The notes under the pieces: generated by a model
What the model was told of the DNA's origin: nothing
The model's input: only the letters and a program-made list of their open reading frames with translations
Databases searched by the model: none
Part shown: positions 38,186-60,758 of the stretch, piece by piece
Layout: each line of letters begins with the position of its first letter
Position numbering within the stretch: the first letter of the stretch is position 1
Made by a program: the position numbers and the translations under genes
IMG/VR virus record: IMGVR_UViG_3300042332_001447
Span: 31,774-95,773 of that record
Length of the DNA: 64,000 nucleotides
Strand: one strand, 5' to 3'
Source: a virus

Positions 38186-40045
38186 ATGGATATAGTTTTA
38201 TGTAGCTTACAAAATAAAGAGCTTATTTTAAGTTTAAGACTTCAACACCCTAAGCATTACGTTAAGTTTATAAAAATGAAACATCAAGTATTATGGAGAG
38301 ATGCGTTATGCTATAATCAAGTGCTCTTTAAAGATACAGACATGTTCACTGCTCCTCATATATTATACAATTGGATATTTAATATACAAATAATACCGCT
38401 CTGCCCAGTTAAGCAGACACCGTTAAAATTCCACGACAGGTTATTTGAATATAGAAAATTTAGCGGCCGTGGGATATTCACTGAAGAGTTTGTTGCATCT
38501 AGAATGAAAACAAGAACAAGGTTTCCAAATTTTAAAGAAAGATTTAAAGCAAAAAGAGAAGAGTATAGCTGGGATGATGAGTATAAGGAGATCGCGAAAA
38601 AAACAATCACTACGCTTTTGCACGAGAAGAATGATAATATAGGTGGCGTATGTGCAATTATAAAAACGACAAAAAATGCAAAGCTTTATTTTTTCTTAAC
38701 AGAAACATATTTCGACGCCAATACTCTTACGGAGTGTATTTACAGGCTTGTGAATGATATTGAAAAACTTCCTTTGTGTCAATATACACAAAAACCTCTA
38801 AAGTTCATAAATTTCAATAAAGGCTATAAATCATATGACGTAACTGCTGTTATTGAGTATAAAGCAAGCAGAAAGAAAGAGAGAATTGCTTTGGGTATTT
38901 TGCTTTCTAAAGAGGAGACACGTAAGAAGTTAAAGGAAATACTAGAGAGTTGCAAGGAAGCTGGAATGAGTGCTAGAAACTTAAAACAAACCGCACTATC
39001 ACACGACCCTAGCGTTGTGTACTCAGTATACGAACATACAAAAACACTTTCAACTCTCACAACTAGATGGGCTGAAAGAGCGTATACACTTCTGCATGAT
39101 TACGATCCATCTGAAAAGAGGCAGCGGTTTATTTCCTTTGAAGATGGTTATTGTGACACATTCACAAGTGTTAATAGTTCTCGAGGTGAGAACGAACTGG
39201 CTGATTGGCTGCAAAGTGTTTGTATTAATAGAGAGATAAGCAGACATGAGAGAATCTTGAATGGTATGGAGATTGATATACTCATTGAAAATAAAATAGG
39301 GTTTGAATATCACGGGGAGTATTTTCATAATTTTGAATTCAAAGGTAAAGATTATCATAAACAAAAAGCTGATTTAGCTCTTTTAAATAACGTAAAACTT
39401 ATTCAAGTCTTTGAAACTGAGTGGTACAATAAGAAAGATATTGTGAAGTCTATTCTATTATCTAAACTCGGTATCATACAACAGAAAATATACGCAAGAG
39501 AGTGCTCTGTGCAAGTATTGGATACAGATATTAAAAACAGTTTTCTACAGGAAAATCATATACAAGGTCAAGATAGAGCTTCGGTTAATTTAGGCCTTAT
39601 GCACAAGGGTAACTTAGTTGCCTGTATGACATTCGGTAGAGGTTACATGGAAAAAGATAATTCAACCGAGTTAGTGCGATTCTGTAATAAGCTCAATACT
39701 ATCGTTGTAGGTGGCGCAAGTAAATTACTTCAGTCATACATAAAGACATACAAACCTTCAAGTATTTTTACGTATGCAGACAGAAGATACTCAAACGATA
39801 GTTCGTTTTACGAGCAACTAGGCTTTACACGAACCGGTCAGACAGTGCCAAATTATTTTTACTTTAAGCCAGCTTTACCACAGTATATGAAGCTCCAGCA
39901 CCGTTATAATTTTGCAAAACATAATCTCAGTAAAAAACTTATGTATTTTGATTCAACACAAACAGAATATCAGAATATGAAAAATAACGGCTATTTTAAA
40001 ATATACGATGCAGGTAGCTACAAATATATTTTAGAGTTAAACTAG
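38186..40045 (+). CDS. second Hef-like homing endonuclease (paralogue of 36338..38104)
   Basis: SRGENEL...EIDILI..IGFEYHGEYFH; IYAREC...NHIQG...ELVRFC...GGASKL..TYADRRYS. Confidence 0.75.
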   Translation: MDIVLCSLQNKELILSLRLQHPKHYVKFIKMKHQVLWRDALCYNQVLFKDTDMFTAPHILYNWIFNIQIIPLCPVKQTPLKFHDRLFEYRKFSGRGIFTEEFVASRMKTRTRFPNFKERFKAKREEYSWDDEYKEIAKKTITTLLHEKNDNIGGVCAIIKTTKNAKLYFFLTETYFDANTLTECIYRLVNDIEKLPLCQYTQKPLKFINFNKGYKSYDVTAVIEYKASRKKERIALGILLSKEETRKKLKEILESCKEAGMSARNLKQTALSHDPSVVYSVYEHTKTLSTLTTRWAERAYTLLHDYDPSEKRQRFISFEDGYCDTFTSVNSSRGENELADWLQSVCINREISRHERILNGMEIDILIENKIGFEYHGEYFHNFEFKGKDYHKQKADLALLNNVKLIQVFETEWYNKKDIVKSILLSKLGIIQQKIYARECSVQVLDTDIKNSFLQENHIQGQDRASVNLGLMHKGNLVACMTFGRGYMEKDNSTELVRFCNKLNTIVVGGASKLLQSYIKTYKPSSIFTYADRRYSNDSSFYEQLGFTRTGQTVPNYFYFKPALPQYMKLQHRYNFAKHNLSKKLMYFDSTQTEYQNMKNNGYFKIYDAGSYKYILELN

Positions 40046-42997: not shown

Positions 42998-44539
42998 TTA
43001 TTGCAAAGGCACGTAACCTAAAGATAATAACTCTTCCATATCTTGATCTGCTTGTACTTCAATTTTAGATAACTCTTCCGGTGTTATTAACCTTTCGTGC
43101 TTACTTTCAGTAAATGTGTTATTAGGATCTGCAATATGGTTCTCAACTAAGTGACCGACTATATACAAATTCGGGTCTTTAGTATCATATCCATTAGATA
43201 AAATTTTTAAAGGTTTTTCCTGAGTATCATGCTCAGCAATTTCAAAATACTGTTGACATATTTCTGACTCTAATATAAACAACGCCCATACAGTTGCCAT
43301 TACTTTATCGTCAGTGTACGTGTCATTTTTCTTGCGATAAGTACCGTTTGGATAACGGATAAACGTTTCAAGTTCTTTAATAGTGTCCATGTCGTTTATG
43401 CTCACTACCTGTAATGTATTCATCCAGTATCGCATATTAGCAACACTTGCAAATCGCATATTATTATGACTCAAGACTCCTAAGTGTCTTGTGTTTGACA
43501 TAGAACCTGTGCTTGATAGCTTTGAACAACTTACTATTTTTTCATACATATGCTTATGAAACATAGTATCTATAACCTGCCCTCCACAGTTATTTCTCTC
43601 TATAAGCAAAGGTGGTTTGCCCCATTGATTGCAAAGAAAGTTTAATTTATTTGCAAAATGATACGGTTCAACGACATTAGTGCTATATACAGCCACTTGC
43701 TTAATATCTGTTAAATCGGTTACATCTAGTACCTGTGCCACTGAAAATGCTCTACCTATGCCTTCTCCTACATCGACTCCTATAACATAGAGACTTTGCG
43801 GTGACGGTTCTTCAAATACTTGATAACAACCTTCTTCACCAGTCCATATAGGTTTTTTATGCTGTTCTTTAAAACGCTCTATAACCGAAGCGCCTATTGC
43901 AGAGTTATTAATATCTGTAAACTGGTTGCCAAATTCTTGTTGAAAACTTTCTTCAGAACCAAGAGCACTTATCATCTGTTTTTTCCACTTATCGGTTCTA
44001 TCTGGTACATCCCACCAATCAATGCGCTCTGCAGTCCACCCGTTTGCGTTCTTTTCAGCCTCGGAATAAATCTCATAAAATTTATTACCGACTCCATTCG
44101 GGGTACTTACCATAAAAATTTTTGTTTTTTTACCTGAAGAAACAATAGGTATAACAGACTTCCAAAATTCTTCAAGAAGATGTGTATTATGTTGTAAGAT
44201 GTTATTTGCAAAATATGTATGCGTGTCTTTTACGTTCTTAATATCATAAACAAAGTCTTTTTTAAATTTGTTAATGCTTATTACTTTTGAAAATCCGCTT
44301 TTTGTTGAAATGTTACGATTTAGACTATTTTTACAAAAAATTCTTTCACCGTTTTCTCCTATAAAAGCGTGAGTACTTGTACACTTAACAGATTCTCCGT
44401 TCTCTGTTACCACAGTGTATAATTGTTTCTTTTTTAGCTTAATAATCCCATCGAAAGATTTCCATCCTTGCGGGGTCTGTATCTCCCAATCCCCTGTGTT
44501 TAGAGCAGTTTGTAAAATATCGTCATATGGTAGTTTCAT
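42998..44539 (-). CDS. terL: terminase large subunit, C-terminal half, preceded by a 118-aa C-intein (44186-44539)
   Basis: ...VYDI..V....YFANNILQHN|T, then VSTPNG, FQQEFG, GVDVGEG, IERNN, DDKVMA nuclease motifs. Confidence 0.9.
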   Translation of the reverse strand: MKLPYDDILQTALNTGDWEIQTPQGWKSFDGIIKLKKKQLYTVVTENGESVKCTSTHAFIGENGERIFCKNSLNRNISTKSGFSKVISINKFKKDFVYDIKNVKDTHTYFANNILQHNTHLLEEFWKSVIPIVSSGKKTKIFMVSTPNGVGNKFYEIYSEAEKNANGWTAERIDWWDVPDRTDKWKKQMISALGSEESFQQEFGNQFTDINNSAIGASVIERFKEQHKKPIWTGEEGCYQVFEEPSPQSLYVIGVDVGEGIGRAFSVAQVLDVTDLTDIKQVAVYSTNVVEPYHFANKLNFLCNQWGKPPLLIERNNCGGQVIDTMFHKHMYEKIVSCSKLSSTGSMSNTRHLGVLSHNNMRFASVANMRYWMNTLQVVSINDMDTIKELETFIRYPNGTYRKKNDTYTDDKVMATVWALFILESEICQQYFEIAEHDTQEKPLKILSNGYDTKDPNLYIVGHLVENHIADPNNTFTESKHERLITPEELSKIEVQADQDMEELLSLGYVPLQ

Positions 44540-44648
44540 TATAAAAATTAAAATCTTTTTCGGTTATAAGTTTGTAGTTGTTGTTATTATTACATTCCTC
44601 AGTGAAAAATTTTATTATTTCTACTCTTGCTTTAACTCTATCAAACAT
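44523..44648 (-). pseudogene. 41-codon mini-ORF between the terL halves, possible endonuclease remnant
   Basis: MFDRVKARVEIIKFFTEECNNNNNYKLITEKDFNFYNETTI; YKLITEKDF resembles the end of TnsA-N/gp4-like nucleases. Confidence 0.35.
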
Positions 44649-44649
44649 A

Positions 44650-45798
44650 TTACACTTCCCTCGTATTAAGATCGACAAACAAATGTTCTAAACTAATTGT
44701 TTTTATTTCTTGAGTGTATTTATTTTTTATAACTACTTCGGAATCTCCAGCCAAGCAATCAATAAACGCTGCTTCGTCTATGCAATTATGAATCAAGATG
44801 TTATTAGCAAAAAAATAACCAGTATCTGTATTAACAACATCATAAACCCGTATTGGAGGGTTATGCTTCTGTTCTGAAACACTAATTACACTATCCTTAC
44901 CAGATGTTGTTAGTAGTACATCGCTTAATTTAACGTTCTTTGCTTCGACCCATTCATCTAATTCGCATACATAAATCTTGTGCTCTGGTGTTACGGAGAT
45001 AGTATTACCGTTTGTAGTTTCGATATTAATAAAGGTATCTGATTCCCCAGTGCATTTTATATCTTGAAAATTAATAAACCCGTTTCGAGATTTTATTTCG
45101 TAGAGTTGTTTATCTTTTATTTGCAAGCAGCTCTCTTCTATAGTCGGTTCAAAAATTTCGTTAGTAATTTTATTTCTAAGCATTAGCTTAGCATCTCCAC
45201 GTACACACAAAATACTTGCCGTATCTCCACGGGCAGCTGTCGATGTTGTTGTGCTAATACCTATACTGGAATCATTATCAAATGTTACACCTGTTTTTCC
45301 GTATTCTTTAACCCCTGGTTTTAAAAAATTAGGTAAAAGCTCGTATGCAAGTCTGATCTTTTTAAAAATTTTAATAGCTGTATTTTCATTATTAGCTACA
45401 ATAAGAGCTCTTTGATCAGCTGAAAAGCATGTGCTCCATAACGTATATACAGTTAGAATTGTTGACTTACCGCATTGTCTAGAAGCTAACAATACCACAA
45501 ACCGGTTATTTGCAAGTGAACGTAATGCCTTTTTTTGTTTAGGGTAAAGCTTAATTGTTTCTTTACCTCTATCAATATTAGTTATAGTAAAATATTTTTC
45601 AGCAAAATAAACTATATCCTCTGTACATCTTTTAAGCTCCTTAACCATCGCGGGTGTCCAGGTAAACTGAGCATCTTCCTTTGGTATTTTTTTATCTCCT
45701 CTATAGTATTGTGCATCATCTACAGGCTCTAATATAATACTATCTGCAGAATGCTCTACAGGTGCGCTTTGAATAGCGTTTTTACGCGGTCTCCCCAT
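44650..45798 (-). CDS. terL: terminase large subunit, N-terminal half, with a contiguous mini-intein (44785-45207) and a terminal 35-aa N-intein (44653-44757)
   Basis: LYPKQ, ASRQCGKS Walker A, IDEAAFI Walker B; CVRGD...ILIHN|C and CLAGDSEV...stop. Confidence 0.9.
   Translation of the reverse strand: MGRPRKNAIQSAPVEHSADSIILEPVDDAQYYRGDKKIPKEDAQFTWTPAMVKELKRCTEDIVYFAEKYFTITNIDRGKETIKLYPKQKKALRSLANNRFVVLLASRQCGKSTILTVYTLWSTCFSADQRALIVANNENTAIKIFKKIRLAYELLPNFLKPGVKEYGKTGVTFDNDSSIGISTTTSTAARGDTASILCVRGDAKLMLRNKITNEIFEPTIEESCLQIKDKQLYEIKSRNGFINFQDIKCTGESDTFINIETTNGNTISVTPEHKIYVCELDEWVEAKNVKLSDVLLTTSGKDSVISVSEQKHNPPIRVYDVVNTDTGYFFANNILIHNCIDEAAFIDCLAGDSEVVIKNKYTQEIKTISLEHLFVDLNTREV
44785..45207 (-). 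mobile_element. contiguous mini-intein (141 aa, no endonuclease) in TerL
   Basis: C1, VTPEHKI block B, VYDV..FFANNILIHN|C. Confidence 0.9.
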
Positions 45799-45800
45799 AC

Positions 45801-46169
45801 CTACTCTCCACCATTCATTATTGAGAGAAACGTTGTTCTTAAATGTTCTATTAAAGAATCTCTAGCTGCTGGAGTAGATGCATGTGAAATGCAGATTTTT
45901 TCACCGTTAATATCGTACCCTAGAATCATAAACGTCTGCAAGTATTCTGCAACGATAGTATCTAAGTGTTGTAGATCGTGTATCTTACTCTGTTTACCTC
46001 TCGATGCTTCATAGAAACGGGTTAGTGCTTGCTCTATGACATCATCTATTTGCTTTTGTACGAAAGGAGCAGTAGTTACCGGTTTTACTGGGTTTACTGA
46101 TTTAACGGGTCCGTTAGTTTTACGTACACGGGGTTTATTTTTTTTCGGTGTTTCACCTTCTGTTGGCAT
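45801..46169 (-). CDS. hypothetical protein
   Basis: 122-aa ORF preceded by CATAAATA. Confidence 0.55.
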   Translation of the reverse strand: MPTEGETPKKNKPRVRKTNGPVKSVNPVKPVTTAPFVQKQIDDVIEQALTRFYEASRGKQSKIHDLQHLDTIVAEYLQTFMILGYDINGEKICISHASTPAARDSLIEHLRTTFLSIMNGGE

Positions 46170-46211
46170 AACTTATGTCAAATATTTATGTAACTTATTC
46201 ACTTAAACAAG

Positions 46212-46556
46212 TTATTTGTTTTTTATGTTTAATTTTTTTTCAGAAGGATAACTCTCGGATTTATTATTAATACCATAACGAACAAGGTGTTCTACTAACA
46301 CTTCAAAAGAATCTGTCTTTAATTTTAGTCGCCCGGGTATAAATTGCCCGCCATCGTATAACTCTAAATACGTTTCTTCAATAAGAGGGTCTTCTACATA
46401 ACATGTACAAAAAACAGACGCATAACCAGGATCAATAATTATTGACCATACCCGAGGGTCTATGTCATTATAATCAGTAAAAAGTTTATAAGCATAGTAA
46501 CCACTATCTCTTAATCGTTTGAGTGTGTATCCTAGAGTTGTGAGTTTATTCGCCAT
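46212..46556 (-). CDS. hypothetical protein
   Basis: 114-aa ORF within the operon. Confidence 0.55.
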   Translation of the reverse strand: MANKLTTLGYTLKRLRDSGYYAYKLFTDYNDIDPRVWSIIIDPGYASVFCTCYVEDPLIEETYLELYDGGQFIPGRLKLKTDSFEVLVEHLVRYGINNKSESYPSEKKLNIKNK

Positions 46557-46569
46557 AATTTTTATTAAT

Positions 46570-47310
46570 CTACTTTACAAGACCTGAAATAATAAATTTC
46601 ACATCTATATATTCATCAACATACTCAATACACGCGATTTTAAGAGTAGCATTAATTTTAACATTAAATGCATGTGTTTTAAGACCTGCTAGCAATCTCA
46701 CACTTTCTAACCCCAATATTATTGGAACTGTAATATCATTACCCGTGTAAGTATCTGCAATCTGGTAACACACATTATTTACATTGTGTCTTTCAAAATC
46801 ATTAAGCTCGGCGTATACTTTTGTATCTTTAGTGGATATGTAAATTTTATCAGATTCTGTCGCTATAGAACTACCCTTTAAAAGTTCTTGTAACTTGTTC
46901 ACGGTTAGCACAAACTCACTATCATAATTAAACTTTTTAATTTTTTCTGGGCTAATAGGGCAGCGAGGCATTACTCCATCTTCAAGTAGAAAATAATTAA
47001 ATTTGAATATATCGTCTTTATATCGTAAATGATTACCATGTATTTCTATTTCAATATCATCTTTTTCTATACAATCTAACAAACGTATAAATTTCTTAAT
47101 ATCTGGTATATTAATATTACTCTTTATATCTGTGCACTCTGCTGCTTTATAGCTAGCGTATAAAACCGCACTACCACCTGCTTGAGATGTGCATATAGTA
47201 TAAAAAATATCTTCTTGTTTTATTATAGATACATTATCTGCTACCTTGCTTATAGGTAGCAGATAATGAGATAAAAAACTATTTTTCTTAAATTTAATTA
47301 TTGAATTCAC
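46570..47310 (-). CDS. gp45: sliding clamp, gp45-like
   Basis: 246 aa; INIPDIKKFIRLLD motif and clamp-like two-domain pattern; gp44 is present in the window. Confidence 0.65.
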   Translation of the reverse strand: MNSIIKFKKNSFLSHYLLPISKVADNVSIIKQEDIFYTICTSQAGGSAVLYASYKAAECTDIKSNINIPDIKKFIRLLDCIEKDDIEIEIHGNHLRYKDDIFKFNYFLLEDGVMPRCPISPEKIKKFNYDSEFVLTVNKLQELLKGSSIATESDKIYISTKDTKVYAELNDFERHNVNNVCYQIADTYTGNDITVPIILGLESVRLLAGLKTHAFNVKINATLKIACIEYVDEYIDVKFIISGLVK

Positions 47311-47732
47311 GTTTTTTGTAATACAGCAACAATAGTATTAAGTGTTTCGTTAATATCAACTAAATTTGTAGATAACTTTTCTAGTACGTCTATTACGCTT
47401 TTATCTAATACACTGCTACTATGTGAAGTGTTATTATATTTTTCATTAAGAGGGAATTGAGGTAATTGAGGCATACTTGCTACAGGCGGCGGTAGAGGAT
47501 ATGCCATTGCAGCCTCTCTATTTAACTGATCAATTATAGCTTGCTGATTTACTACACTACTCTCTGTTTGTATTTGCTGTGCTTGCTGTATGGATGGTAT
47601 AAACGAAATAGGATTTAGTCTATTTGCTGGACCTAGACTTGAAGTCTGAGTCGTATACTGGTCTATAGTATGTAGCTCATTTGCTGCAGATTTAGCTAGA
47701 AAAGCTATTGCTAGTTCATCATCATTAATCAT
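47307..47732 (-). CDS. hypothetical protein
   Basis: 141-aa Gln/Pro-rich ORF. Confidence 0.5.
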   Translation of the reverse strand: MINDDELAIAFLAKSAANELHTIDQYTTQTSSLGPANRLNPISFIPSIQQAQQIQTESSVVNQQAIIDQLNREAAMAYPLPPPVASMPQLPQFPLNEKYNNTSHSSSVLDKSVIDVLEKLSTNLVDINETLNTIVAVLQKT

Positions 47733-47741
47733 AAGTATATA

Positions 47742-48797
47742 TTATCTTATTAGAGATTTATAAACATCAAGCGTTACTCCAGGTTTGAAACCATCTTCTA
47801 CTCCCTTTACTATCACTGACACTGCATCATGAGAGTGTAGAGATTCTAGATGCGAACACACTACCTTGAAGTCTTTAATGCGTTGATCGTTGTTAAGTTT
47901 TTCGTAGAGCAGTCTTGCCGCGTCTTCGACAAATTTGAGATTAGAACCGTTAAGCTCTGCAAACGCTTGCTCGTCCTCTCTCTTAACGATTACTTGAGTC
48001 TCTGTTTTAAGAGCACTCAAACAAATTTCTTGAAGATCTTCGATCCAAAGCATATCTTCAAATAAAACAGATACTCTTGCAACTGATCTCTGGCTATGTG
48101 AAACTACTGCTCTATTTCTATATTTTGATGCATGCTCTCCTAACTCATAGCTGCACGGGCACGCACTACTATACACAAAATCAAAATGTATATATTTTTT
48201 AAAGTTGTTATCTCTCAACCAATCTCCTTCAAGCGTTACTGAGTAGTACTGATACCCTGAATTACCTGAACGCAGTGACTTCTGAACAATGGGGTAAGAA
48301 ATGTTCAGCATAATTCTCGCATCAAAAACATCGAGACGATCTTTATAAGCTTGTAATACGTCTTTAATTTTATCGATGCAAAAAATATGATCTTTAAACT
48401 CGTAAAAAGATCTCATAATACGAGACATATTAATACCTTTCTTGTGAGATTCCAAAGAAACAGTGCCTGTAATGCTTGTTTCTAAATCTAAAAACGAACC
48501 AGTTCTCGTACGATATCTGAGTGGTAGCTTAAAGTTGTTAATACCGACTTGTTGTATGGGTACCGGTGCTCCGCAGATTAGCGAGCTCGGACCATTCTGT
48601 AAATCTGGTAACGACTGCAAATACTTTTCAGTTACTTCTAATTTATCATCATATATTCTAATAGGGGGTATATATGTATCCGCATAAACTGAGGTAGTGC
48701 ATTGCTTGGCTAGCTTATCTTTTTCAGTGTTGTTTGCAAATTCATGTTCATCTTCCAACCAATCGTAGGTGTTTTTATTTGGCATGTTCATACTCAT
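47742..48797 (-). CDS. folE2: GTP cyclohydrolase IB
   Basis: LPDLQ, IQQVGI, KGINMSR, SACPCS, HSQRS, VKREDE, FVEDAAR, ESLHSHDA. Confidence 0.92.
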   Translation of the reverse strand: MSMNMPNKNTYDWLEDEHEFANNTEKDKLAKQCTTSVYADTYIPPIRIYDDKLEVTEKYLQSLPDLQNGPSSLICGAPVPIQQVGINNFKLPLRYRTRTGSFLDLETSITGTVSLESHKKGINMSRIMRSFYEFKDHIFCIDKIKDVLQAYKDRLDVFDARIMLNISYPIVQKSLRSGNSGYQYYSVTLEGDWLRDNNFKKYIHFDFVYSSACPCSYELGEHASKYRNRAVVSHSQRSVARVSVLFEDMLWIEDLQEICLSALKTETQVIVKREDEQAFAELNGSNLKFVEDAARLLYEKLNNDQRIKDFKVVCSHLESLHSHDAVSVIVKGVEDGFKPGVTLDVYKSLIR

Positions 48798-48803
48798 ATA
48801 AAA

Positions 48804-49727
48804 TTACAGACCTGCAAGCAATTCCTTAAGTTTTGCATCTGTATCGTCTTCTGTGACCGGGTCTTTTGCACTCTCTACTCCTTCGAAAATCATATCAAGA
48901 TCTGCGTTCTTAGCTGGTGTCTCAATATCTAGCGTAGGTTTAGCTAGAGCAGCTGTAACATTAGCGGTAGAAATCTCTTCATTAATCTCGTCTTCAGTTT
49001 CTGTGTCTTGGATACAGAAGAAATGTTGATCAATCATACGCTGCAATTCTGCACGTGTCTTCGGCTTAAACATCTTAGTGAGATCAAATACTCCATTATG
49101 AATAGCTTCAATTTTTGCTTCACTGACACCTTCGAGCGCTGTTGGTGAGATAAATTTTGAAGATGCATATGTAACAAAATTACGAGCATTAGCACTACCT
49201 GCTCTTGATTCGCATTTAATACGCAAGCTACAGCCATTAGCTACATCGAAAATTTTCTCTGCTCCAAATTCATCTGCATCATCTCCGTCAATAGCGCTAG
49301 TAATGATCTTAGCAAGTTCTTTACCATAACGAATAATCTTAACCTTACCTTCGTTATCTGAATTAGATGGATCAGAAATAACATACGCATTAACCATCCA
49401 AGCTTCTTTCCGTGTAATAGGTTTCATACGTTCTTTCTCTTCCGTTGTACCGGTGCGGTACGTCTTAATGACGTAATCATCAATAGGGCATCCTTCATTA
49501 TAGGTAGCTGGGCAAAGAGCTGTAACAAACTGCCCTGTGGCAATACTATTCCAGCTATGATGCCAGTAATGATAGATAGACTGTCTAGGTTCAACAATAT
49601 TAGGTACAAGACGAACCACATAGGTTTTTCCTGGTTCGAATTTCATTATTTCTTTATACGGGCTATCATCTTTTTTTGTTGTAAGAGACGCTTTAATTTC
49701 GCTGAATAGGTTTTTTGTTAATGTCAT
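48804..49727 (-). CDS. gp32: single-stranded DNA-binding protein gp32
   Basis: VVRLVP, CP....E.CPI, YVISDPSN.DNEGKVKI..YGK, acidic C-terminal tail. Confidence 0.85.
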   Translation of the reverse strand: MTLTKNLFSEIKASLTTKKDDSPYKEIMKFEPGKTYVVRLVPNIVEPRQSIYHYWHHSWNSIATGQFVTALCPATYNEGCPIDDYVIKTYRTGTTEEKERMKPITRKEAWMVNAYVISDPSNSDNEGKVKIIRYGKELAKIITSAIDGDDADEFGAEKIFDVANGCSLRIKCESRAGSANARNFVTYASSKFISPTALEGVSEAKIEAIHNGVFDLTKMFKPKTRAELQRMIDQHFFCIQDTETEDEINEEISTANVTAALAKPTLDIETPAKNADLDMIFEGVESAKDPVTEDDTDAKLKELLAGL

Positions 49728-49734
49728 ACGTTTA

Positions 49735-50406
49735 TTATTGTATATTGTTATATGTTTTATGCAAGGTTTTATCTACAAAAAATTTTATTTTATTATATGC
49801 TACTGTAAGAAAAGGCTTTAATGCTCTAGAATTGTTATATCTATTTTTATAGTCTAAAAAATTAGAACCAAAATCTCCTAAAAATAAATTTTTCTCGTCT
49901 TGAGGTAGATTAGTGATTATATCATGAATTCCAGGAAACTCCATAAGCACGTAACAGTTTATTTTAGATCTTTTAATATGATATATCCATTCTGGCTCTA
50001 GGCTTGATGTACGAAAATAAGAGTACTCGTCAAGTTGAATTTTATGTTCTAAACAAAATTTAGCTATATAATGTAACGATTCTTCGACTTCTCTCTTACA
50101 ATTATCTGGCTGCTTGTGAGATATTTCTTGTTTGAAGATAGAGTAACTTTTCACAGCTCTCGGGGATGCAAAATATGATAAATCAAAATACTGTACATCT
50201 GTATATAGCTTATACGGAGCTATAAAATATGTGTTTAAATCTATGTCTGGGTATTTTGTAAAAAATATCGATAGTTTTTTTACAAAACGGTAATTTGTGT
50301 CACCCTCAAAACCTGTGAAGTCGTTTCTCTTCTTGAATGGTTTACCTCTAAGAGAGCGTGAAACTGCAAGGTGAGTGTTATAAATTCTTTTTTCTAGTTC
50401 GGTCAT
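49735..50406 (-). CDS. hypothetical protein, possibly a gp59-like helicase loader by position
   Basis: 223 aa, between gp41 and gp32; no firm motif. Confidence 0.45.
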   Translation of the reverse strand: MTELEKRIYNTHLAVSRSLRGKPFKKRNDFTGFEGDTNYRFVKKLSIFFTKYPDIDLNTYFIAPYKLYTDVQYFDLSYFASPRAVKSYSIFKQEISHKQPDNCKREVEESLHYIAKFCLEHKIQLDEYSYFRTSSLEPEWIYHIKRSKINCYVLMEFPGIHDIITNLPQDEKNLFLGDFGSNFLDYKNRYNNSRALKPFLTVAYNKIKFFVDKTLHKTYNNIQ

Positions 50407-50719
50407 TCTTTTTTTTACTAAACGATGAATTAAAAAGTTTTTTAGTATTTTTTGATTTTATTAAATTCGGATAAAGTTGCAACAGTCCTAATAAAGCTTC
50501 ATGCACACTTTGAGAGCCCGTAATGAAAATAAAAAGTTCTCTCATTTCTAAATCTTGTAAAACTGATGTAAATAACCCTGATGCGTTAATTTTTTTGTTA
50601 TTTATGATTGAAAGGAAAGAACCAAAAATTAAAACTCCTTCTATATATTCTTTTGTACAAATTTGCTCCAAAGGATTACCTTGAAACATATATTTTTGAA
50701 GAGTTCTCTCGTTTAACAT
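50378..50719 (-). CDS. hypothetical protein
   Basis: 113-aa ORF. Confidence 0.5.
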   Translation of the reverse strand: MLNERTLQKYMFQGNPLEQICTKEYIEGVLIFGSFLSIINNKKINASGLFTSVLQDLEMRELFIFITGSQSVHEALLGLLQLYPNLIKSKNTKKLFNSSFSKKKNDRTRKKNL

Positions 50720-50761
50720 ATAAGATGTACTTACATGTTAAACGTAACTATTGCAACTCTT

Positions 50762-51283
50762 CTATTTATCAGCTAGAGATTCGAGTACCGATTCCGCAGA
50801 ATTAACTGCAGAGTCAGGTGAATCGCTCGCAAAATAATCAGGATTCGTTTCCTTTAGTGTTAGTGTTTCATATTTTACCTTAAAAGCGCAATGCCCGAAA
50901 TTAGCTCCAAACCGATTTTTCTGCATACCGAGATTAATAATACCTAACTCTTTCTCTTGCTCTTCCTGCCACAAAGAGCATATTACGTCGCATGTAGCCG
51001 CAAGTCCAATTGAATTTTTTGTAAGTATATCATTACAAAAGAATAGACTATCACCTGTAACAGAAATATCTATAGTCTCCATTTCTCCGACAGGTTCTAT
51101 ACTAACGATCTCGTCATTATAATCAATAGACTTATCGGTTATAGCATTTTTCTCTTCTTGTTCTTCAAGAATTTTCGCTGCGACTTCGATGTACTTTTCT
51201 TTGTCTGTTTCTCTATCAGCTAATCCTAGGTTTTGCAGAGCTTCAAACCTATTATTTAAAAAGTGAATAATTTTCTCGTTCAT
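50762..51283 (-). CDS. gp41: replicative helicase gp41, C-terminal fragment, with C-intein (51014-51283)
   Basis: DEIVSIEPVGEMETIDISV...FFCNDILTKN|SIGLAATCD...KNRFG. Confidence 0.88.
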   Translation of the reverse strand: MNEKIIHFLNNRFEALQNLGLADRETDKEKYIEVAAKILEEQEEKNAITDKSIDYNDEIVSIEPVGEMETIDISVTGDSLFFCNDILTKNSIGLAATCDVICSLWQEEQEKELGIINLGMQKNRFGANFGHCAFKVKYETLTLKETNPDYFASDSPDSAVNSAESVLESLADK

Positions 51284-51284
51284 T

Positions 51285-52655
51285 TTAAGAATTCCTTGTG
51301 TTTAGTTTAGCACCAATCTTAAGACCGTCTTCTACAGATAATCTTCCATCAGATGTCGGGAATTTGTGTTTGGAGCTAACTATAATTTCTTTTCCAGACT
51401 TCAATTTAAGTTTATAGCATAATTTAATGTTTCTGTGATGAACTTGCGTAACAGTCTTGTAACCGTCATGTGAAGTGATTTGATCTCCGAATTCAACATC
51501 TCCAATTTTCTTTTTTGTACCGTCTCGAAGAGTTATCATTTGATTAACCTCAATACACTCTGAAATACCCTCCATACCCGGATTAGCAGTATTAAAGGAG
51601 CTCCTCGTTAATTGGCTTGCAGTTACAAAGGGAATGTTGTACTTAAAGGACAACGCTCTAAGTTGCTCCGCTACCTCTTTAACGGACTCGTATGAGTTTA
51701 AGTTTTTAGATGAGGGTTTTAAAAGATTAATATAATCAATAACTACAACCTCTGGTTTAAAACCTCTATGGCCTAATTTTGTTATATAAGCATCAATGTG
51801 TCTAACAGTTATAGTTTTTGGCGGATACTCTTTAATTACAAGTTTACTCTCAAGCTGTCTTTCAACATGCTCTACTTGCTGTTTAAGTTCGTCGGTATAT
51901 ACGCTCAATTGATTATGTGGTATCTGTGTAACCTGTGCACTTATTCTTTTGGCGTACATAAACTCAGACATTTCAAGCGAGATGAGTAAGACGTTGTGGT
52001 TTGCGAGTACCATATTAGCTGCAATATTACCTAAGAAAATACTCTTACCTACGTTAACTTGCCCGACAAGACAAGTTAACGTTTTTGGAAATAACCCGCC
52101 TTCGAGTCTTTCATCTAAAAACTTCCAGCCTGTTGGAAGTGGGTTATAAACAGTCGTTAGCTCTTTTATGTGTCTTTCAATATCTTCGAAATAAAAATAA
52201 CCTAAATCTTCAACTAACGAGATATTGTATACTTTTTCAAATTGAGATAGAGTTTCTTGTAAATCTATTTTACCCGATGTGTATTTTTCTGCAGCTTCAT
52301 TAATAGCTTTTACTAAGCTTCTTTCTTTTAAGAACCTCTCTGTATTTGCAATTAATTCATCTTTATTAAAATTAGTATCAAGTTGCTTTAATTTTAAACC
52401 GACATCTGTAAAAGCTTTTTTTTCATTTTCAGTTGTTAGTCTTGACTTAATTTCTGTTAACGTGGGCGGTGCACCACGCTCTAAGAAAAACGAAATAATA
52501 GAATTAAAAACAATACCTATATTTTTGTCATTAAAATAACTAGGATCGAGATGCTCAATTACGCACGCTAAATATTCTTGATTTAAAAGCGAATTAAGAA
52601 GTATGACATTTTCATAATAATCGAGATCTAATTTACTCGGTTCAGTGTTTGTCAT
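51285..52655 (-). CDS. gp41: replicative helicase gp41 (DnaB-like), N-terminal fragment, ending in a 90-aa N-intein (51288-51557)
   Basis: GQVNVGKS, ISLEMSE, VVIDYINL, TASQLTR, then ISE|CIEVNQMI...SSKHKF. Confidence 0.9.
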   Translation of the reverse strand: MTNTEPSKLDLDYYENVILLNSLLNQEYLACVIEHLDPSYFNDKNIGIVFNSIISFFLERGAPPTLTEIKSRLTTENEKKAFTDVGLKLKQLDTNFNKDELIANTERFLKERSLVKAINEAAEKYTSGKIDLQETLSQFEKVYNISLVEDLGYFYFEDIERHIKELTTVYNPLPTGWKFLDERLEGGLFPKTLTCLVGQVNVGKSIFLGNIAANMVLANHNVLLISLEMSEFMYAKRISAQVTQIPHNQLSVYTDELKQQVEHVERQLESKLVIKEYPPKTITVRHIDAYITKLGHRGFKPEVVVIDYINLLKPSSKNLNSYESVKEVAEQLRALSFKYNIPFVTASQLTRSSFNTANPGMEGISECIEVNQMITLRDGTKKKIGDVEFGDQITSHDGYKTVTQVHHRNIKLCYKLKLKSGKEIIVSSKHKFPTSDGRLSVEDGLKIGAKLNTRNS

Positions 52656-52660
52656 GTGTT

Positions 52661-53377
52661 TCAGATCTCTTCTACTTCTTCTTCAATCTCCTCGACTTTG
52701 GTAGTATTTTCGCCGTAACAAAGCTTTTCTTGTAATGTTTTTTCAAGCTCTGGCATTATCTTCTCCCAGAACGCTGGATCTTTTTCTAGATCTTTTCTAT
52801 ACCCTAGGCTCTCACCTTTATACATTACAGTTCTACCTGGTTTTTCTATAACACTAAACGCTTCTGCAATTTCAAATAACCCGGCATGCTTATCTAGACC
52901 AGATTTAAAATTAAGATATAACTCTGTCTTGAGATAAGAAGGAACGAACCGGTTTTTAACCGTAAGAGCTCCTAGAGTTACACCTGAAACGTTATGTGCA
53001 ATAGCGATAGATTGTTCGTCTGGATTGTCACTAGCTTTTTCGTTCTTAGTGCTAAGCTGCACTAAGACTGAAGCAAGATATATTGGTCCTTTTCCACCGC
53101 TTTGTGTTTTAACTAAAGTAGGAAACATCTCCATACCCTCGTAAATATGGTTACTAAAGAGAATAGGTACCTTAGCCTTGGCTGCCTTGTAAGTAAGTGT
53201 ACGCATCATTGATTTACAGTTATGTGAAACAATACTGCTATCCGTAATACAGAACGTACTATCATCTTCTACACTAATATCAATTAGATCTTCATCAATA
53301 TCAATTTCACTGATATCGTTTATGGTAAGGTACTCGTAATTATCTTCCGCAAAAATAAATTCGTTGTTTGGATTCAT
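52661..53377 (-). CDS. uvsX: UvsX recombinase, C-terminal fragment, with 53-aa C-intein (53219-53377)
   Basis: LIDISVEDDSTFC...IVSHN|CKSMMR, then NHIY, SGGKGPIY, KNRF. Confidence 0.88.
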   Translation of the reverse strand: MNPNNEFIFAEDNYEYLTINDISEIDIDEDLIDISVEDDSTFCITDSSIVSHNCKSMMRTLTYKAAKAKVPILFSNHIYEGMEMFPTLVKTQSGGKGPIYLASVLVQLSTKNEKASDNPDEQSIAIAHNVSGVTLGALTVKNRFVPSYLKTELYLNFKSGLDKHAGLFEIAEAFSVIEKPGRTVMYKGESLGYRKDLEKDPAFWEKIMPELEKTLQEKLCYGENTTKVEEIEEEVEEI

Positions 53378-53454
53378 CGTTTAGAATTGTAGTATAAACT
53401 TCATAAAAATCCATAAATGTTTTTATTGGATGTTTAAGAAATGTTTCCATTCAT
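53340..53454 (-). pseudogene. mini-ORFs (MNGNIS* and 36-aa METFLKHPIK...) between the uvsX halves
   Basis: ATGs at 53454 and 53450 directly after GATAAATA; possibly a decayed inserted gene. Confidence 0.3.
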
Positions 53455-53460
53455 ATATTA

Positions 53461-53468
53461 TATTTATC
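53461..53468 (-). promoter_or_regulatory. late-type promoter GATAAATA upstream of uvsX-C
   Basis: TAAATA core 6 nt before an ATG, the same geometry as the other late promoters here. Confidence 0.45.
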
Positions 53469-53508
53469 AAAACATACATACCAAAACGTTAAAAATAATA
53501 CCAACAAA

Positions 53509-53540
53509 AAACCGGTTGATTTTTAAAAATCAACCGGTTT
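53509..53540 (-). terminator. perfect 32-bp palindrome / intrinsic terminator between the uvsX halves
   Basis: AAACCGGTTGATTTTT-AAAAATCAACCGGTTT followed by a U-rich tract on the minus strand. Confidence 0.65.
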
Positions 53541-53560
53541 AAGTATCAGGATGGTGAGGT

Positions 53561-54397
53561 TTAATTACTCAATTTAACAAGTTTATCTGATGGTTTAATA
53601 TGTTGAGCAACTACATATTGTAGTTGCTTGTTACGCTGAACAAGCATTTTATGATTCTTAGACATAACGATTTGCATACCGTTAACAGTTAGTTTTATAG
53701 CTTTACTATGTTTCGTCTTCCACTTATCTGTTACAGTCTTGTATCTACCAAGATGTGTTAATACTTTATCCCCTGTATTTACGTCTGCAATTCTCTTCAT
53801 ACCGCTTTCGGTTTGCACTAATGTATCCGGGTGCAAGCATGCTTTAGCGCGCTGCCCAACATCTGCTGCATCCTTACCGGCTGATGCATCTCTAACCTCT
53901 TTTGCACTTGCTAGATTACCGAGCGAGTCAATAGCTACAATAAATTTAAGATCAGGGTTTGTTTCTCTCGCTTTAATTACGTTATCAAGGAACACGCACA
54001 TCTGGTTACGGCAATCTTCAATAGTCTCTACTGGATAGTACTTAACTCTCGACGTATCCATTCCTGCTCCTTGTGCGCTTTTCTTATCTACTGCTACCTC
54101 AGAATCCCAAATAACAGGTATATAACCTATCTTCTGAGCGTTAGCCATAATCTTATTCATGATAAGAGTCTTACCAGCCATACTCGGTCCAGCGAACCCT
54201 GTAATACGACCAGAAGGAATACCTTTATAGAGAGATCCTGAAATAATTGCATTTAATGCGTAAGAGCTAGTGTCAATCCATTCATCTGCTGTAGAGAGTG
54301 TTGCAGCATCAAGTACTGCTGCGTCTGGATTGAGATCGTCTACAGATTTAAAAATATCTTTAAGACCGGATAGTTCGTTTTTTGTTTTTGGTGCCAT
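53561..54397 (-). CDS. uvsX: UvsX/RecA recombinase, N-terminal fragment, ending in a 92-aa N-intein (53564-53839)
   Basis: GPSMAGKT, WDSE, IDSLGNL, GQRAKA|CLHPDTLV...SKNHKM. Confidence 0.9.
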   Translation of the reverse strand: MAPKTKNELSGLKDIFKSVDDLNPDAAVLDAATLSTADEWIDTSSYALNAIISGSLYKGIPSGRITGFAGPSMAGKTLIMNKIMANAQKIGYIPVIWDSEVAVDKKSAQGAGMDTSRVKYYPVETIEDCRNQMCVFLDNVIKARETNPDLKFIVAIDSLGNLASAKEVRDASAGKDAADVGQRAKACLHPDTLVQTESGMKRIADVNTGDKVLTHLGRYKTVTDKWKTKHSKAIKLTVNGMQIVMSKNHKMLVQRNKQLQYVVAQHIKPSDKLVKLSN

Positions 54398-54432
54398 ACG
54401 TATATAATATACTATCTAATAAAAATCTCAAC

Positions 54433-54463
54433 AAAAAAGCCGAGCTTTTAGCTCGGCTTTTTT
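54433..54463. terminator. bidirectional intrinsic terminator
   Basis: AAAAAAGCCGAGC-TTTTA-GCTCGGCTTTTTT. Confidence 0.8.
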
Positions 54464-54488
54464 GATCCACGGCATCTATACAAATGTT

Positions 54489-54848
54489 TTATTCGTCATC
54501 AAAAAGTTTAATGACAGCTGGTTGTTCAGGTTGCTGAACAGGTGCTACAGGCGCAAAAAGCTGTTGATATTGAGCATTAAGCTTAAAATCAAACAAGACA
54601 TCTTTACACTGAGTAATTTTATCTTTATTATAAAGCCAAATAGTTGATTCGTTTTTATCAGCTAAAAATTCTTTAAAAAACAAAGGTAGAATTTGTAGCT
54701 GTAGACCGTTTTGCTGTTGAGAGACAGCAACAACTGCTGGGTTCTTAATCGCTAAGTGAGTGTTAGTTGTGTCACCGATAACTAGTTCTCCTAGTACAGT
54801 ACGACCTACTGCATCAAGGAATGTGATAAGGTTATTTTCTTGTTTCAT
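54489..54848 (-). CDS. hypothetical protein
   Basis: 119-aa ORF. Confidence 0.55.
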   Translation of the reverse strand: MKQENNLITFLDAVGRTVLGELVIGDTTNTHLAIKNPAVVAVSQQQNGLQLQILPLFFKEFLADKNESTIWLYNKDKITQCKDVLFDFKLNAQYQQLFAPVAPVQQPEQPAVIKLFDDE

Positions 54849-57695: not shown

Positions 57696-60600
57696 TTACA
57701 TTCCAAATAAGTCAAATAAATCTGTCTGTACTTCTCTAGAAAAATTAGGCATTCTCCATTCAATCGCTTCGTAAACACTTTCTACTGGAGCAGCTACTAT
57801 TTTTTCAAACATCTTATCATAATCAATTTTTATAAGATCTCTAAATTCTTTTGGATACTCTGCTACGAAAGCTACTGCATCAAGGTTGTGCGCATTCTTT
57901 ACAGCGTAAAAATACTTTATTTTTTGACCGGAGTTAATTTTTTCATACTTACTTTGTAAGTTGTATTTTTCAAGTAGGAGATTGTATGCAATAGCTGCCT
58001 TTACGTGACAAGGTGTACCTTTTTCAAATTTACTCAATGAAGCAGTTTTACTGTATTTTTCATAATCTTTTACAGCTCTACGAAACGAAGCATCTTGTAT
58101 ATCGAGATGCTTAAACTCCTCGTAAGCTTCTCTAAAGATTGCATTGGTCTGTTTTACATCTTTTGTTAGAAACGCTGTCTCAACAGTCTTTTTAATAAGT
58201 TCTTTTACTTTTTTTGGAGTTGTCGATCTTGCTATCTCCACTCCTACGTATTTAAACTTATTAACTGCTATACCTTCATCATCTAGTACTTGAATAATAT
58301 AGCGCTTTTTCATTAAAAACGCTCCTACTCCTGCTATTGCTTCTCTTTTAAATTCAAATCTCGGATCTATAGAGTTGAGCTCTTCTCTAGCCCATTTAAG
58401 AATCTCTGTATTAACAACCCTATCCAAATCATCCACTACTTCGTGCGCCTCTTTTGATACTACACTAGTCTCGTCTGTTAATTTAATACCGAGTTTTTTG
58501 AGTATAGGGGTAATTGTGATATAACAGGAATTGTGTACAAGTATGTCGTTTGCAAAAAATGTATGCTCTGTTTCGTCTTGCATCTCTAAATCATAAACAT
58601 ACTCATCTTCAAACTCCCCTATGTATTCTACTACAGTAATATCAGTTATTTCGTATTGCTTATTGTCGCATGTATTTTCCCTAACAACTATCATCTTGTC
58701 CGTCTTAATATTAATATCTTTAGGGGACACTCTTATTAGCTTACTGTCTCTAATTACCATACAACCGTGATCCTCGGTCATAATCACCTCTTTACCGTCA
58801 ACCACTATTCTATATTTCTTTTTAGATACTTTATGTCTTATTATATTTTTCACTCTACCTTGAACAACCTGCTCTGTTACTGAATTGTATGTTAATGCTC
58901 GGACATTATTATCTTGAACGTCTATGATTTCGTGTCCATGGTGAGTTATGTTTTTTCTATTATCTTTATAGTTTTCGTATAAAATTTCTATAGATATCTG
59001 GCCTTGATTTGTTCTTATAAGAGTTTCACCAACTACAGAATCGGTATCTCCGTATACGACAACATCTTCCGCTATACCATATTTATTAATAGCATATTGT
59101 CTAAGAATGTCAGATCCAGCTCTTGCAACTGCTTGTCCTGTGAGAGTAATAGATGAGGCATTATCAATATCCATAAACGGCGAATGCTTGTTTCCGAATA
59201 CCCCGAAAATCGAGTTAAGTAGAATCTTTAACGTGTACTGAAGTGTATCGTAATAGATAATAGAATCCTGTGTCTCTTTATCTTTTTTCTTTGAAAGCTC
59301 AAGCTCTTTCATCTTCTTTTTTGCTTCAACTCTCTCCGTATAGATCTTATTAATCAAGTTCGGGCAAACCCCTTTAAACTTCTGTGAATATAATACTCCA
59401 GCTTTAGAAACCGCAATTTTTTCTTTTTTTATAAATTCTTTAAACTTCTCTGTGCTAATACCCGAAACTTTACCGTTAACAAGCTTTATTTCAATTTTTT
59501 CGTCTTTCTCGTAATCACCTGTAACTATCTTTCCAAGCTTTGTCTCTGATGAGATGTTAAGCGTAATAATAACGTTAGGGTATAGTGAGTTTACGTCAAA
59601 GCTTACAATGCTCTCGTGTAAACCTCTGACCGGGTCTCTTACAAAGCCACCGGCTAGTGGGTCTCTAATCTCATCATTAATAAATGTAGGTATTACATAT
59701 TCTTGTTCGCTTGCTTGCAATGACATTGCACCAGTTACAATAGCGATCTTACCTAAAGCTGATTCAAAATTCGTACATCCTTTATATGCCAATAATCTAA
59801 CAATGTTGAGGTAGTTTAATTTCTCATCAAGTTTAATAAGAAGATTTACGTCTTGTATGTTGTAGTCTACAAAATTCTCCCAATCTGTTTCAGCTAAATT
59901 TGAAAGATTGGTGGCGTTAATTGCTAGTTTTCCTTCCTTAAGCTCATACTCAGAAATGTAGTTAAGAGAATATGATTCTCTATCTCCTTTTGAGAATTTT
60001 TTATATAACTCCATATAATCGATACAGCTAATACCGTGTATATTCCACTTACCCGTCTCTTGCCCGAATTCGTTTCTAAACTCTCTATAATGTAATTTTT
60101 TTAGAGGTGATAGCTGATTAATAAAATCATCATTTAATAATTTTCTACCTCTATTGATAATATACGGTATGTCAAAGTTGTTTGAATTCCACCCGACAAA
60201 TACATCTGGTGGATCAGCTTTCCAAAAATTCATGAATTTTTCAAAGAGTTCACTTTCAGAATTACATCTATGATATCTAACGTTAGAGGATTTAGGTGTA
60301 TATTCTTTCTCGACACCCCATGTATCAATCTGATTGTTTAGAGAGTTATAAACCGTTATAAGAATAACGGGGTCCTTAGCTTCCTTAGGAACGGGAAATG
60401 AGGTTGGTGAAAAAGTTTCAATGTCAAAATAGTATACCTTTAAAGGAAACTTACTAAAATCTTTACTATGTACAGTGTCTCTGTACATGTCAATTAAAAA
60501 TTGTTGATCTGGTGGTAAATTTCCGAAAAAACGTTTTCTGCTAGAATCTTTTACAAACTTACTACGCTCAAAGCTATTTCTAAAGACATGCTTCTTAAGA

Positions 60601-60758
60601 GGGGTTTTAAAAATAGATGTGGCATCTTTACCTCTTTCATCTTCTGTATACAAATACGGAGAAAAAGGCATTTCAGTATCAATTCTTACACCTTCTTCAG
60701 ACCACGTACGTAGAAATACAGATCCGTTAAAACTATCATAATAACAATTACGGTACAT
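57696..60758 (-). CDS. gp43: family B DNA polymerase gp43 with intein
   Basis: FDIET, GWNS..FD, YNIQD exonuclease motifs; DVNSLYP, KILLNSIFG, YGDTD|S. Confidence 0.95.
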   Translation of the reverse strand: MYRNCYYDSFNGSVFLRTWSEEGVRIDTEMPFSPYLYTEDERGKDATSIFKTPLKKHVFRNSFERSKFVKDSSRKRFFGNLPPDQQFLIDMYRDTVHSKDFSKFPLKVYYFDIETFSPTSFPVPKEAKDPVILITVYNSLNNQIDTWGVEKEYTPKSSNVRYHRCNSESELFEKFMNFWKADPPDVFVGWNSNNFDIPYIINRGRKLLNDDFINQLSPLKKLHYREFRNEFGQETGKWNIHGISCIDYMELYKKFSKGDRESYSLNYISEYELKEGKLAINATNLSNLAETDWENFVDYNIQDVNLLIKLDEKLNYLNIVRLLAYKGCTNFESALGKIAIVTGAMSLQASEQEYVIPTFINDEIRDPLAGGFVRDPVRGLHESIVSFDVNSLYPNVIITLNISSETKLGKIVTGDYEKDEKIEIKLVNGKVSGISTEKFKEFIKKEKIAVSKAGVLYSQKFKGVCPNLINKIYTERVEAKKKMKELELSKKKDKETQDSIIYYDTLQYTLKILLNSIFGVFGNKHSPFMDIDNASSITLTGQAVARAGSDILRQYAINKYGIAEDVVVYGDTDSVVGETLIRTNQGQISIEILYENYKDNRKNITHHGHEIIDVQDNNVRALTYNSVTEQVVQGRVKNIIRHKVSKKKYRIVVDGKEVIMTEDHGCMVIRDSKLIRVSPKDINIKTDKMIVVRENTCDNKQYEITDITVVEYIGEFEDEYVYDLEMQDETEHTFFANDILVHNSCYITITPILKKLGIKLTDETSVVSKEAHEVVDDLDRVVNTEILKWAREELNSIDPRFEFKREAIAGVGAFLMKKRYIIQVLDDEGIAVNKFKYVGVEIARSTTPKKVKELIKKTVETAFLTKDVKQTNAIFREAYEEFKHLDIQDASFRRAVKDYEKYSKTASLSKFEKGTPCHVKAAIAYNLLLEKYNLQSKYEKINSGQKIKYFYAVKNAHNLDAVAFVAEYPKEFRDLIKIDYDKMFEKIVAAPVESVYEAIEWRMPNFSREVQTDLFDLFGM
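58530..59039 (-). mobile_element. contiguous Ser-initiated mini-intein (170 aa) in polymerase motif C
   Basis: YGDTD|SVVGET...MTEDHG...VYDLEM...FFANDILVHN|SCY. Confidence 0.92.

Follow-up and report, generated by a model that had tools for sequence, protein, structure and literature searches.

How does a phage obtain its terminase TerL, its helicase gp41 and its UvsX protein when each of the three genes is broken into two open reading frames (ORFs)? We addressed this question for the window, a stretch of 64,000 nucleotides (nt) that makes up bases 31774-95773 of the 95,773-base IMG/VR record IMGVR_UViG_3300042332_001447, and mainly for the 11.4-kb region of it that holds terL, gp41 and uvsX. 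An earlier note, made from the letters alone, had claimed that each of these genes carries the halves of a split intein and that all three products depend on protein trans-splicing. Our analysis makes it very probable that cassettes once fractured the three genes, that the endonuclease genes of these cassettes were subsequently lost, and that TerL, gp41 and UvsX are now made by trans-splicing.

The source of the window is a T4-like freshwater myovirus that has not been cultured. It has the genes of a T4-like phage (tail sheath and tube, TerS/TerL, gp32, gp41, UvsX, gp43, a gp46-like gene and others), megablast of the 11.4-kb region against cultured phages gave no match, and the gp41 helicase is only ~31% identical to the closest gp41 of a cultured phage. 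Near-identical DNA is present in lake-water and freshwater metagenomes of several studies. We compared the window with related contigs, numbered L008-L011, L044, L081-L083, L163-L165 and so on (L145 is the Shigella phage ESh36), and with contigs from the sequencing runs X1-X4.

Anatomy of the three fractured genes

All six ORFs lie on the minus strand where the earlier note had placed them, and the N- and C-halves of each pair align to consecutive parts of T4 gp17, T4 gp41 and phage UvsX, proteins with solved structures. The halves are parted by 110 nt in terL, 1 nt in gp41 and 183 nt in uvsX. The parts are listed below, with lengths in amino acids (aa) and a slash at each splice junction.

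44650..45798, minus strand: terL N-half ORF, 382 aa, with N-extein (residues 1-197), cis mini-intein A, a 9-aa extein and the N-half of split intein B
44785..45207, minus strand: TerL cis mini-intein A, 141 aa, with Cys1 and block B TPEH, ending IHN/C, inside Walker B at ASIL/CIDE
44758..44784, minus strand: 9-residue extein CIDEAAFID that separates intein A from split intein B; acidic part of Walker B
44653..44757, minus strand: N-half of TerL split intein B, 35 aa, Cys1 being Cys348
42998..44539, minus strand: terL C-half ORF, 513 aa; the C-half of split intein B (residues 1-118), then Thr+1 and the C-extein
44186-44539, minus strand: C-half of TerL split intein B, 118 aa, block B TSTH, ending QHN before Thr
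51285..52655, minus strand: gp41 helicase N-half ORF, 456 aa; residues 17-367 match T4 gp41 (8DUE, E 1.4e-27)
51288-51557, minus strand: gp41 N-intein, 90 aa (residues 367-456), Cys1 being Cys367, block B SSKH
50762..51283, minus strand: gp41 C-half ORF, 173 aa; a 90-aa intein part (57-aa extension and 33-aa core), Ser+1 and the C-extein
51113-51283, minus strand: N-terminal extension of the gp41 C-half, 57 aa, conserved and predicted to be helical
51014-51112, minus strand: gp41 C-intein core, 33 aa, ending TKN before Ser
53561..54397, minus strand: uvsX N-half ORF, 278 aa; residues 26-184 match residues 17-175 of phage UvsX 9GBG
53564-53839, minus strand: UvsX N-intein, 92 aa (residues 187-278), Cys1 being Cys187, block B SKNH
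52661..53377, minus strand: uvsX C-half ORF, 238 aa; residues 51-202 match 9GBG residues 175-314
53219-53377, minus strand: UvsX C-intein, 53 aa (residues 1-53), ending SHN before Cys+1 and the C-extein

In each pair the first ORF ends in an N-intein that starts with Cys and the second begins with a C-intein that ends HN/T (TerL), KN/S (gp41) or HN/C (UvsX), in agreement with the earlier note. Residues 32-200 of the terL N-half (2O0H/3CPE, E 7e-31) and residues 124-352 of the terL C-half match T4 gp17. Read from the translations, all three split inteins keep Cys1, the block B His, the block F Asp, the terminal Asn and the +1 nucleophile.

The boundaries are set by uninterrupted alleles, and Cys1 of TerL-B, gp41 and UvsX stands directly after the last residue that each protein has in common with them. 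TerL is uninterrupted and collinear at the exact junction in three related loci (L008, L009 and L010), which continue from CIDEAAFID through V, A or P into HLLEEFW. L008, whose TerL exteins are 96-98% identical, reads ASILCIDEAAFIDVHLLEEFW; the position of Thr+1 is taken by Ala in L010 and by Pro in L009. The gp41 gene is continuous through MEGISE/SIGLAA in 68 of 70 related loci, as is uvsX in 59 of the 60 loci that span both sides of the junction (GQRAKA, then I, T, L or M, then KSMMR). Removal of the inteins yields continuous proteins, and the junctions predicted earlier, AAFID-THLLEE, GISE-SIGLAA and QRAKA-CKSMMR, fit these alleles. In TerL (V/A/P to T) and UvsX (I/T/L/M to C) the +1 nucleophile is found only in intein-bearing alleles. 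The exteins are intact and 73-98% identical to their relatives, and each is present in a single copy on the 96-kb record.

Searches for intein homology bore out the assignments, although a HINT profile search did so only in part: the UvsX N-half scored above the Hint_2 cut-off (28.6 versus 28.4 bits), whereas PF14890 hits on the TerL C-half (1.4e-6) and the gp41 N-half (0.007) stayed below cut-off. Matches of the split inteins to the gp41-1 intein structure 6QAZ had E values of 1.4e-11 (residues 378-451 of gp41-N), 8e-4 (the gp41 C-intein core against residues 96-128) and 1.3e-4. Residues 6-118 of terL-C match CatC, a consensus atypical split intein (6DSL_B, E 9e-9), and the N-half of TerL-B is 43-47% identical to the short N-halves of L011 and L163-L165. 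A PDB search with the 44-aa stretch that joins the TerL 9-mer to its short N-half gave no match.

The earlier note overlooked the cis mini-intein A of TerL, which is recognised by PF14890 (5.9e-8) and PT-HINT (28.0 bits, cut-off 27.7). This intein is missing from the 95-98% identical TerL of L008 and present in the ~92% identical strain of run X4. The CIDEAAFID stretch downstream of it is identical in the uninterrupted TerL of L008 and L010. Because terL-N carries both intein A and the N-half of split intein B, TerL would need one reaction in cis and one in trans.

Known atypical TerL inteins (AceL-TerL, GOS-TerL and the consensus Cat-TerL, PDB 6DSL) have an N-half of 25-37 aa and a C-half of 104-115 aa (PMC11766414). 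TerL-B resembles them in its short N-half (35 aa) and its long C-half (118 aa) that carries block B TSTH. It differs in its Cys1/Thr+1 pair, where the known ones have Cys1/Cys+1 or Ser1/Cys+1, and in the cis mini-intein only 9 residues upstream; Thr+1 also occurs in the TerL of L011. Atypically split TerL inteins of the same type interrupt TerL at other insertion sites in other phages (L163:2128-3888, L164:2251-4011 and L156:5624-5953); their N-halves are ~32 aa and their C-halves ~115 aa long, with ~1.3 kb between the halves in L163 and L164. The dnaE gene of Trichodesmium erythraeum reportedly holds contiguous inteins and a split intein (Liu and Yang 2003). That system is alike in having cis and trans inteins in one host gene and unlike in that here the two inteins are 9 residues apart, flank the acidic residues of Walker B and sit in a phage terminase.

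The gp41 intein is like gp41-1 (PDB 6QAZ/6RIZ) in its canonical split, its N-half of ~88-90 aa and its position in a T4-type helicase gp41 ahead of Ser+1. It is unlike gp41-1 in two respects: its terminus is TKN rather than THN, with the terminal Asn and Ser+1 present and Lys in place of the penultimate His, and its C-half ORF carries 57 extra N-terminal residues, compared with a C-half of ~37 aa. The Lys is kept in all five gp41 alleles seen, including that of the propagated Tequatrovirus ESh36, and the extension, which has its own ATG, is kept together with TKN/S in L081, L083, L044 and ESh36. An AlphaFold model from a 4-sequence alignment, usable for residues 1-46 only (the rest has a predicted local distance difference test score, pLDDT, below 50), places helices at residues 2-18 and 28-46 of the extension with pLDDT 73-80.

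Compared with L081, L083 and L044, the gp41 intein halves have a proportion of nonsynonymous differences (pN) of 0.15-0.22 and of synonymous differences (pS) of 0.65-0.87, the latter near saturation; we give only pN and pS because saturated synonymous sites make the ratio of the corresponding rates, dN/dS, mostly incomputable. For the 57-aa extension pN is 0.29-0.36, far under pS. Judged by these substitutions, the gp41 intein halves are under purifying selection. ESh36 (ON528746.1, 22146-27370) is a cultured Tequatrovirus whose record, flagged UNVERIFIED, annotates gp41 as two 'DNA primase/helicase' coding sequences that flank a hypothetical protein of 333 aa; the C-half has the same ...DYNDE...LTKN/S intein, with an N-extension that is longer still.

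For UvsX, a complex prediction of the two halves scored 0.82 and the best control 0.00. This mark is reached by 51 of 78 solved complexes and by 2 of 108 mismatched pairs; in the UvsX runs the partner had a pLDDT of at least 76 and at least 94% of the contacts agreed between runs. The complex model supports pairing of the halves, as likeness rather than proof, and its score may owe something to solved split inteins that the model has memorised. A word-based search of limited sensitivity among 5.8 billion proteins recovered the QRAKA/C UvsX intein in 5 protein clusters, all of them C-halves. Four other public UvsX C-halves use the QRAKA/C site and have the same SHN/CKS junction. The UvsX N-half had no close relative in any uvsX gene of a cultured phage; the best cultured matches are inteins of other genes with 29-44% identity. 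A UvsX split intein with 49-50% identity (L082:3995-6630) is inserted one residue upstream, at QRAK/...HN/CIKSMMR instead of QRAKA/...HN/CKSMMR, so that its Cys+1 stands in for another residue of the native protein.

Loss of the endonuclease genes and expression of the halves

Fractured genes with split inteins were described by Dassa, London, Stoddard, Schueler-Furman and Pietrokovski in 2009, with gp41 and terminase among the hosts (PMC2677866). The genes studied here are like theirs in that a phage replication or packaging gene is present as two ORFs with split-intein halves. They are unlike the typical case in that the gaps hold no free-standing endonuclease gene, and in this they match the exceptional gp41-7, a gp41 locus without endonuclease in the same study. 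The earlier statement that no intact endonuclease lies in any gap stands; the gaps measure 110, 1 and 183 nt.

More distant relatives with the same split inteins carry nuclease genes of 356-403 aa in these places. In L011, TerL-N and TerL-C are separated at the same site by a 403-aa ORF for a TnsA-like nuclease. The gp41 halves of L081 and L083 are separated by a ~1.1-kb gap, with a 368-aa ORF in L081, and a 356-aa ORF lies between the UvsX halves of L082. The gp41 split intein of L044 is an independent case without a nuclease.

The 110-nt terL gap contains a second feature that the earlier note missed.

44523..44648, minus strand: 41-codon mini-ORF, an endonuclease-gene relic with a GAGGGA Shine-Dalgarno sequence, starting 1 nt past the terL-N stop and overlapping the terL-C start

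The N-terminal part of its product matches residues 8-24 and the C-terminal part residues 386-400 of the 403-aa L011 nuclease, each match being reached in 0 of 500 shuffles. Because both ends of the nuclease are matched, we read the 41-codon ORF, from its sequence, as the footprint of an internal deletion of the nuclease gene. A counterpart in uvsX was considered and is not claimed: the gap has only a weak 25-nt DNA match to the L082 gene at the nuclease start (ATGGAT/ATGGAC) and no significant protein match. In the ~92% strain of run X4, contigs diverge from the window at ~44275-44584, an interval that takes in the relic and N-terminal residues of the TerL C-intein; a different deletion state or a retained endonuclease may account for this.

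The halves seem, from their start and stop signals, to be expressed in an arrangement that favours balance. The gp41-C start lies 1 nt past the gp41-N stop, with an AAGGA Shine-Dalgarno sequence inside the upstream ORF. Neither terL-C nor uvsX-C has a recognisable Shine-Dalgarno sequence of its own. Translation of the 41-codon relic probably feeds terL-C, and we infer from this layout that the relic has been kept because it delivers ribosomes to terL-C. The signals in the uvsX gap, which are consensus matches only, are the following.

53457..53540, minus strand: uvsX intergenic signals, a terminator-like hairpin with a 14-bp stem and T-tract (53540-53509), then a promoter-like TTGGTA-16-TATAAT (53484-53457)

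A more far-reaching idea, which we consider unlikely, is that the split inteins are more than scars left by parasites and were co-opted as expression logic after the endonucleases were lost. The uvsX halves would then form separate transcription units, the relic, as a mini-ORF for translational coupling, would fix the ratio of the two terminase halves, and the gp41-C extension would be a partner-capture or regulatory module. If the uvsX halves were indeed transcribed separately, active recombinase would arise only when both are expressed.

Proposed trans-splicing and its alternatives

The history and mechanism that we favour can be outlined as follows. Cassettes consisting of a split intein and a free-standing homing-endonuclease gene would have invaded three core genes; the endonuclease genes would later have been deleted and the split inteins retained, since nothing short of a precise deletion could make the host gene whole again. 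The half-proteins would be translated separately, and the intein halves would associate into a HINT fold. Class-1 splicing would then join the exteins through a thioester at Cys1, attack by the +1 Thr, Ser or Cys, and cyclisation of the terminal Asn. In TerL, the cis mini-intein would leave Walker B, and the atypical split intein 9 residues downstream would act in trans. Because each extein is single-copy on the record, dependence of the three genes on trans-splicing, as the earlier note proposed, is the best reading.

An assembly or sequencing artefact, in which contiguous inteins look split only through erroneous stops and gaps, has been largely refuted, and we give it hardly any credence. 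A single indel could mimic the stop and 1-nt frame change between the gp41 halves, and contigs of the source run break at the uvsX hairpin (53509-53539). However, what separates the halves of terL and uvsX is not intein sequence: these 110 and 183 nt hold a relic, a terminator-like hairpin and a promoter-like site. In addition, the 57-aa extension of gp41-C starts at its own ATG and is kept in gp41 relatives. The same split points recur in independent contigs and a cultured phage (L011, L081, L083, L044, L082 and ESh36); that of gp41 is common to L081, L083, L044 and ESh36. The probable source run covers the region at ~20x with no differences, and no indel variants were found at the three junctions in runs X1-X3. 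Two other studies hold identical pieces of the region; an identical contig spans the terL-C start in run X3, which belongs to another study, and identical contigs span the gp41 extein/N-intein junction in run X2. In the ~92% strain of run X4 both the terL-N stop and intein A are present, as are the start of uvsX-C and its gap, with indels of 18 and 21 nt in the non-coding part. Contig joints were seen in X4 (44262 to 44700) and X2 (52519 to 54659).

It is improbable that the genes are decaying pseudogenes of a defective phage that makes no functional proteins. Such decay could be suspected since all three endonuclease genes are gone, a late stage of the homing cycle, and gp41 is without the penultimate His. 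Yet all catalytic residues are retained, the intein halves have a pN well under their pS, and the exteins are as intact and conserved as described above. Moreover, lake metagenomes from at least four studies contain either this very sequence or a ~92% identical strain, and this speaks for a phage that replicates. Reconstitution without a peptide bond, in which intein halves merely hold the enzyme halves together, is highly improbable. It has a precedent in phage Aeh1, whose NrdA is split into fragments that assemble into the enzyme without being spliced (PMC3045599), and the Lys at the penultimate position of gp41 could slow Asn cyclisation. Against this, Cys1, the block B His, the terminal Asn and the +1 nucleophile are conserved in all three inteins, and the +1 residue is changed to Thr or Cys relative to the empty alleles, which is needed only for splicing chemistry.

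Several observations also count against our preferred reading of three trans-spliced proteins. The record is ~45% complete (CheckV), and intact second copies may lie elsewhere in the genome. The gp41 intein has Lys where a penultimate His is usual, and terL-C and uvsX-C are without recognisable Shine-Dalgarno sequences. The independent pieces from X2 and X3 listed above do not bridge the gp41 stop and start. Finally, most single-half Pfam intein scores fall below the curated cut-offs, as expected for half-domains.

Orthogonality, further inteins and neighbouring genes

Protein engineering relies heavily on naturally split inteins, and there is a demand for sets that can be used together without cross-reacting (PMC7090010, PMC11766414). 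The three split inteins are pairwise 18-28% identical, which makes cross-reaction unlikely, and TerL-B is split at a different position; mutual orthogonality of the three pairs, as the earlier note expected, is plausible on these grounds. The electrostatic polarity is alike in gp41 and UvsX, with charges of +7 and +11 on the N-terminal intein half (IntN) and -6 and -15 on the C-terminal half (IntC), so that cross-association in the capture step would be possible for these two. The phage thus appears to offer three diverged natural pairs coexisting in one cytoplasm: a Cys1/Thr+1 TerL intein, a gp41-1 relative with Lys, and a rare canonical UvsX intein with very strong charge complementarity.

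The novelty that the earlier note implied was overstated. PMC2677866 already had gp41 and terminase among its fractured genes, as well as a terminase intein with a long C-half (a C-part of 122 aa) and an endonuclease-less locus, gp41-7, and the AceL, GOS and Cat TerL inteins were also known. New are the UvsX family at QRAKA/C, the Cys1/Thr+1 atypical TerL intein, the TKN sub-family with an extended C-half, the deletion relic and the 9-residue spacing of two inteins. Compared with the set of PMC2677866, in which UvsX is only an intact neighbour and no fractured host, the present contig differs in having three fractured genes, all endonuclease-less, a deletion relic in terL, and UvsX as a host. 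It shows clearly how the homing cycle of fractured genes ends: the endonuclease is lost with a deletion scar and the split intein stays. The current understanding of inteins is unchanged by these findings.

At least six inteins are present on the 96 kb, three of them in cis; this count is a lower bound because PF14890 alone missed one of them. Besides TerL intein A, the cis inteins are the following.

58530-59039, minus strand: contiguous gp43 mini-intein, 170 aa, in ORF 57696-60758, with Ser1 and block B TEDH, ending VHN/S, in YGDTD/S
L144:2589-4511 (record 18588-20510), upstream of the window: PhoH-like P-loop protein, 640 aa, with a full-size intein in GPAGTSK/T that has a LAGLIDADG domain

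The same site of gp43, the DNA polymerase, holds a 63% identical intein in L044. The intein of the PhoH-like protein, the one that PF14890 did not detect, is seemingly Ala-initial, has a Trp two residues past the block B His and ends THN/T; by these features it may be class 3-like. L044 (1-6400) has cis mini-inteins in the UvsX P-loop (GPES/C...NHN/CGKT) and in gp41 (QLNR/C...THN/C), together with the same polymerase intein as here and its endonuclease-less gp41 split intein. Because its set of inteins is different, we regard the freshwater lineage as an intein hot spot.

Two further groups of genes were noted on the record. An IS605-type TnpB gene (L144:5032-6273, record 21031-22272) encodes OrfB_IS605 and Cas12f-like TNB domains. 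In the window, two divergent free-standing ORFs of 588 and 619 aa (36338-38104, minus strand, and 38186-40045, plus strand) adjoin the tail sheath gene. Their products have a common C-terminal region with a nuclease-like motif E-x-D-I-L...E-Y-x-G...H, and there are weak matches to the C-terminus of the nuclease in the L081 gap (E 0.003) and to Mom, a Pfam family (1.7e-4). Both ORFs are probably genes of homing-endonuclease-like proteins sited outside the intein gaps.

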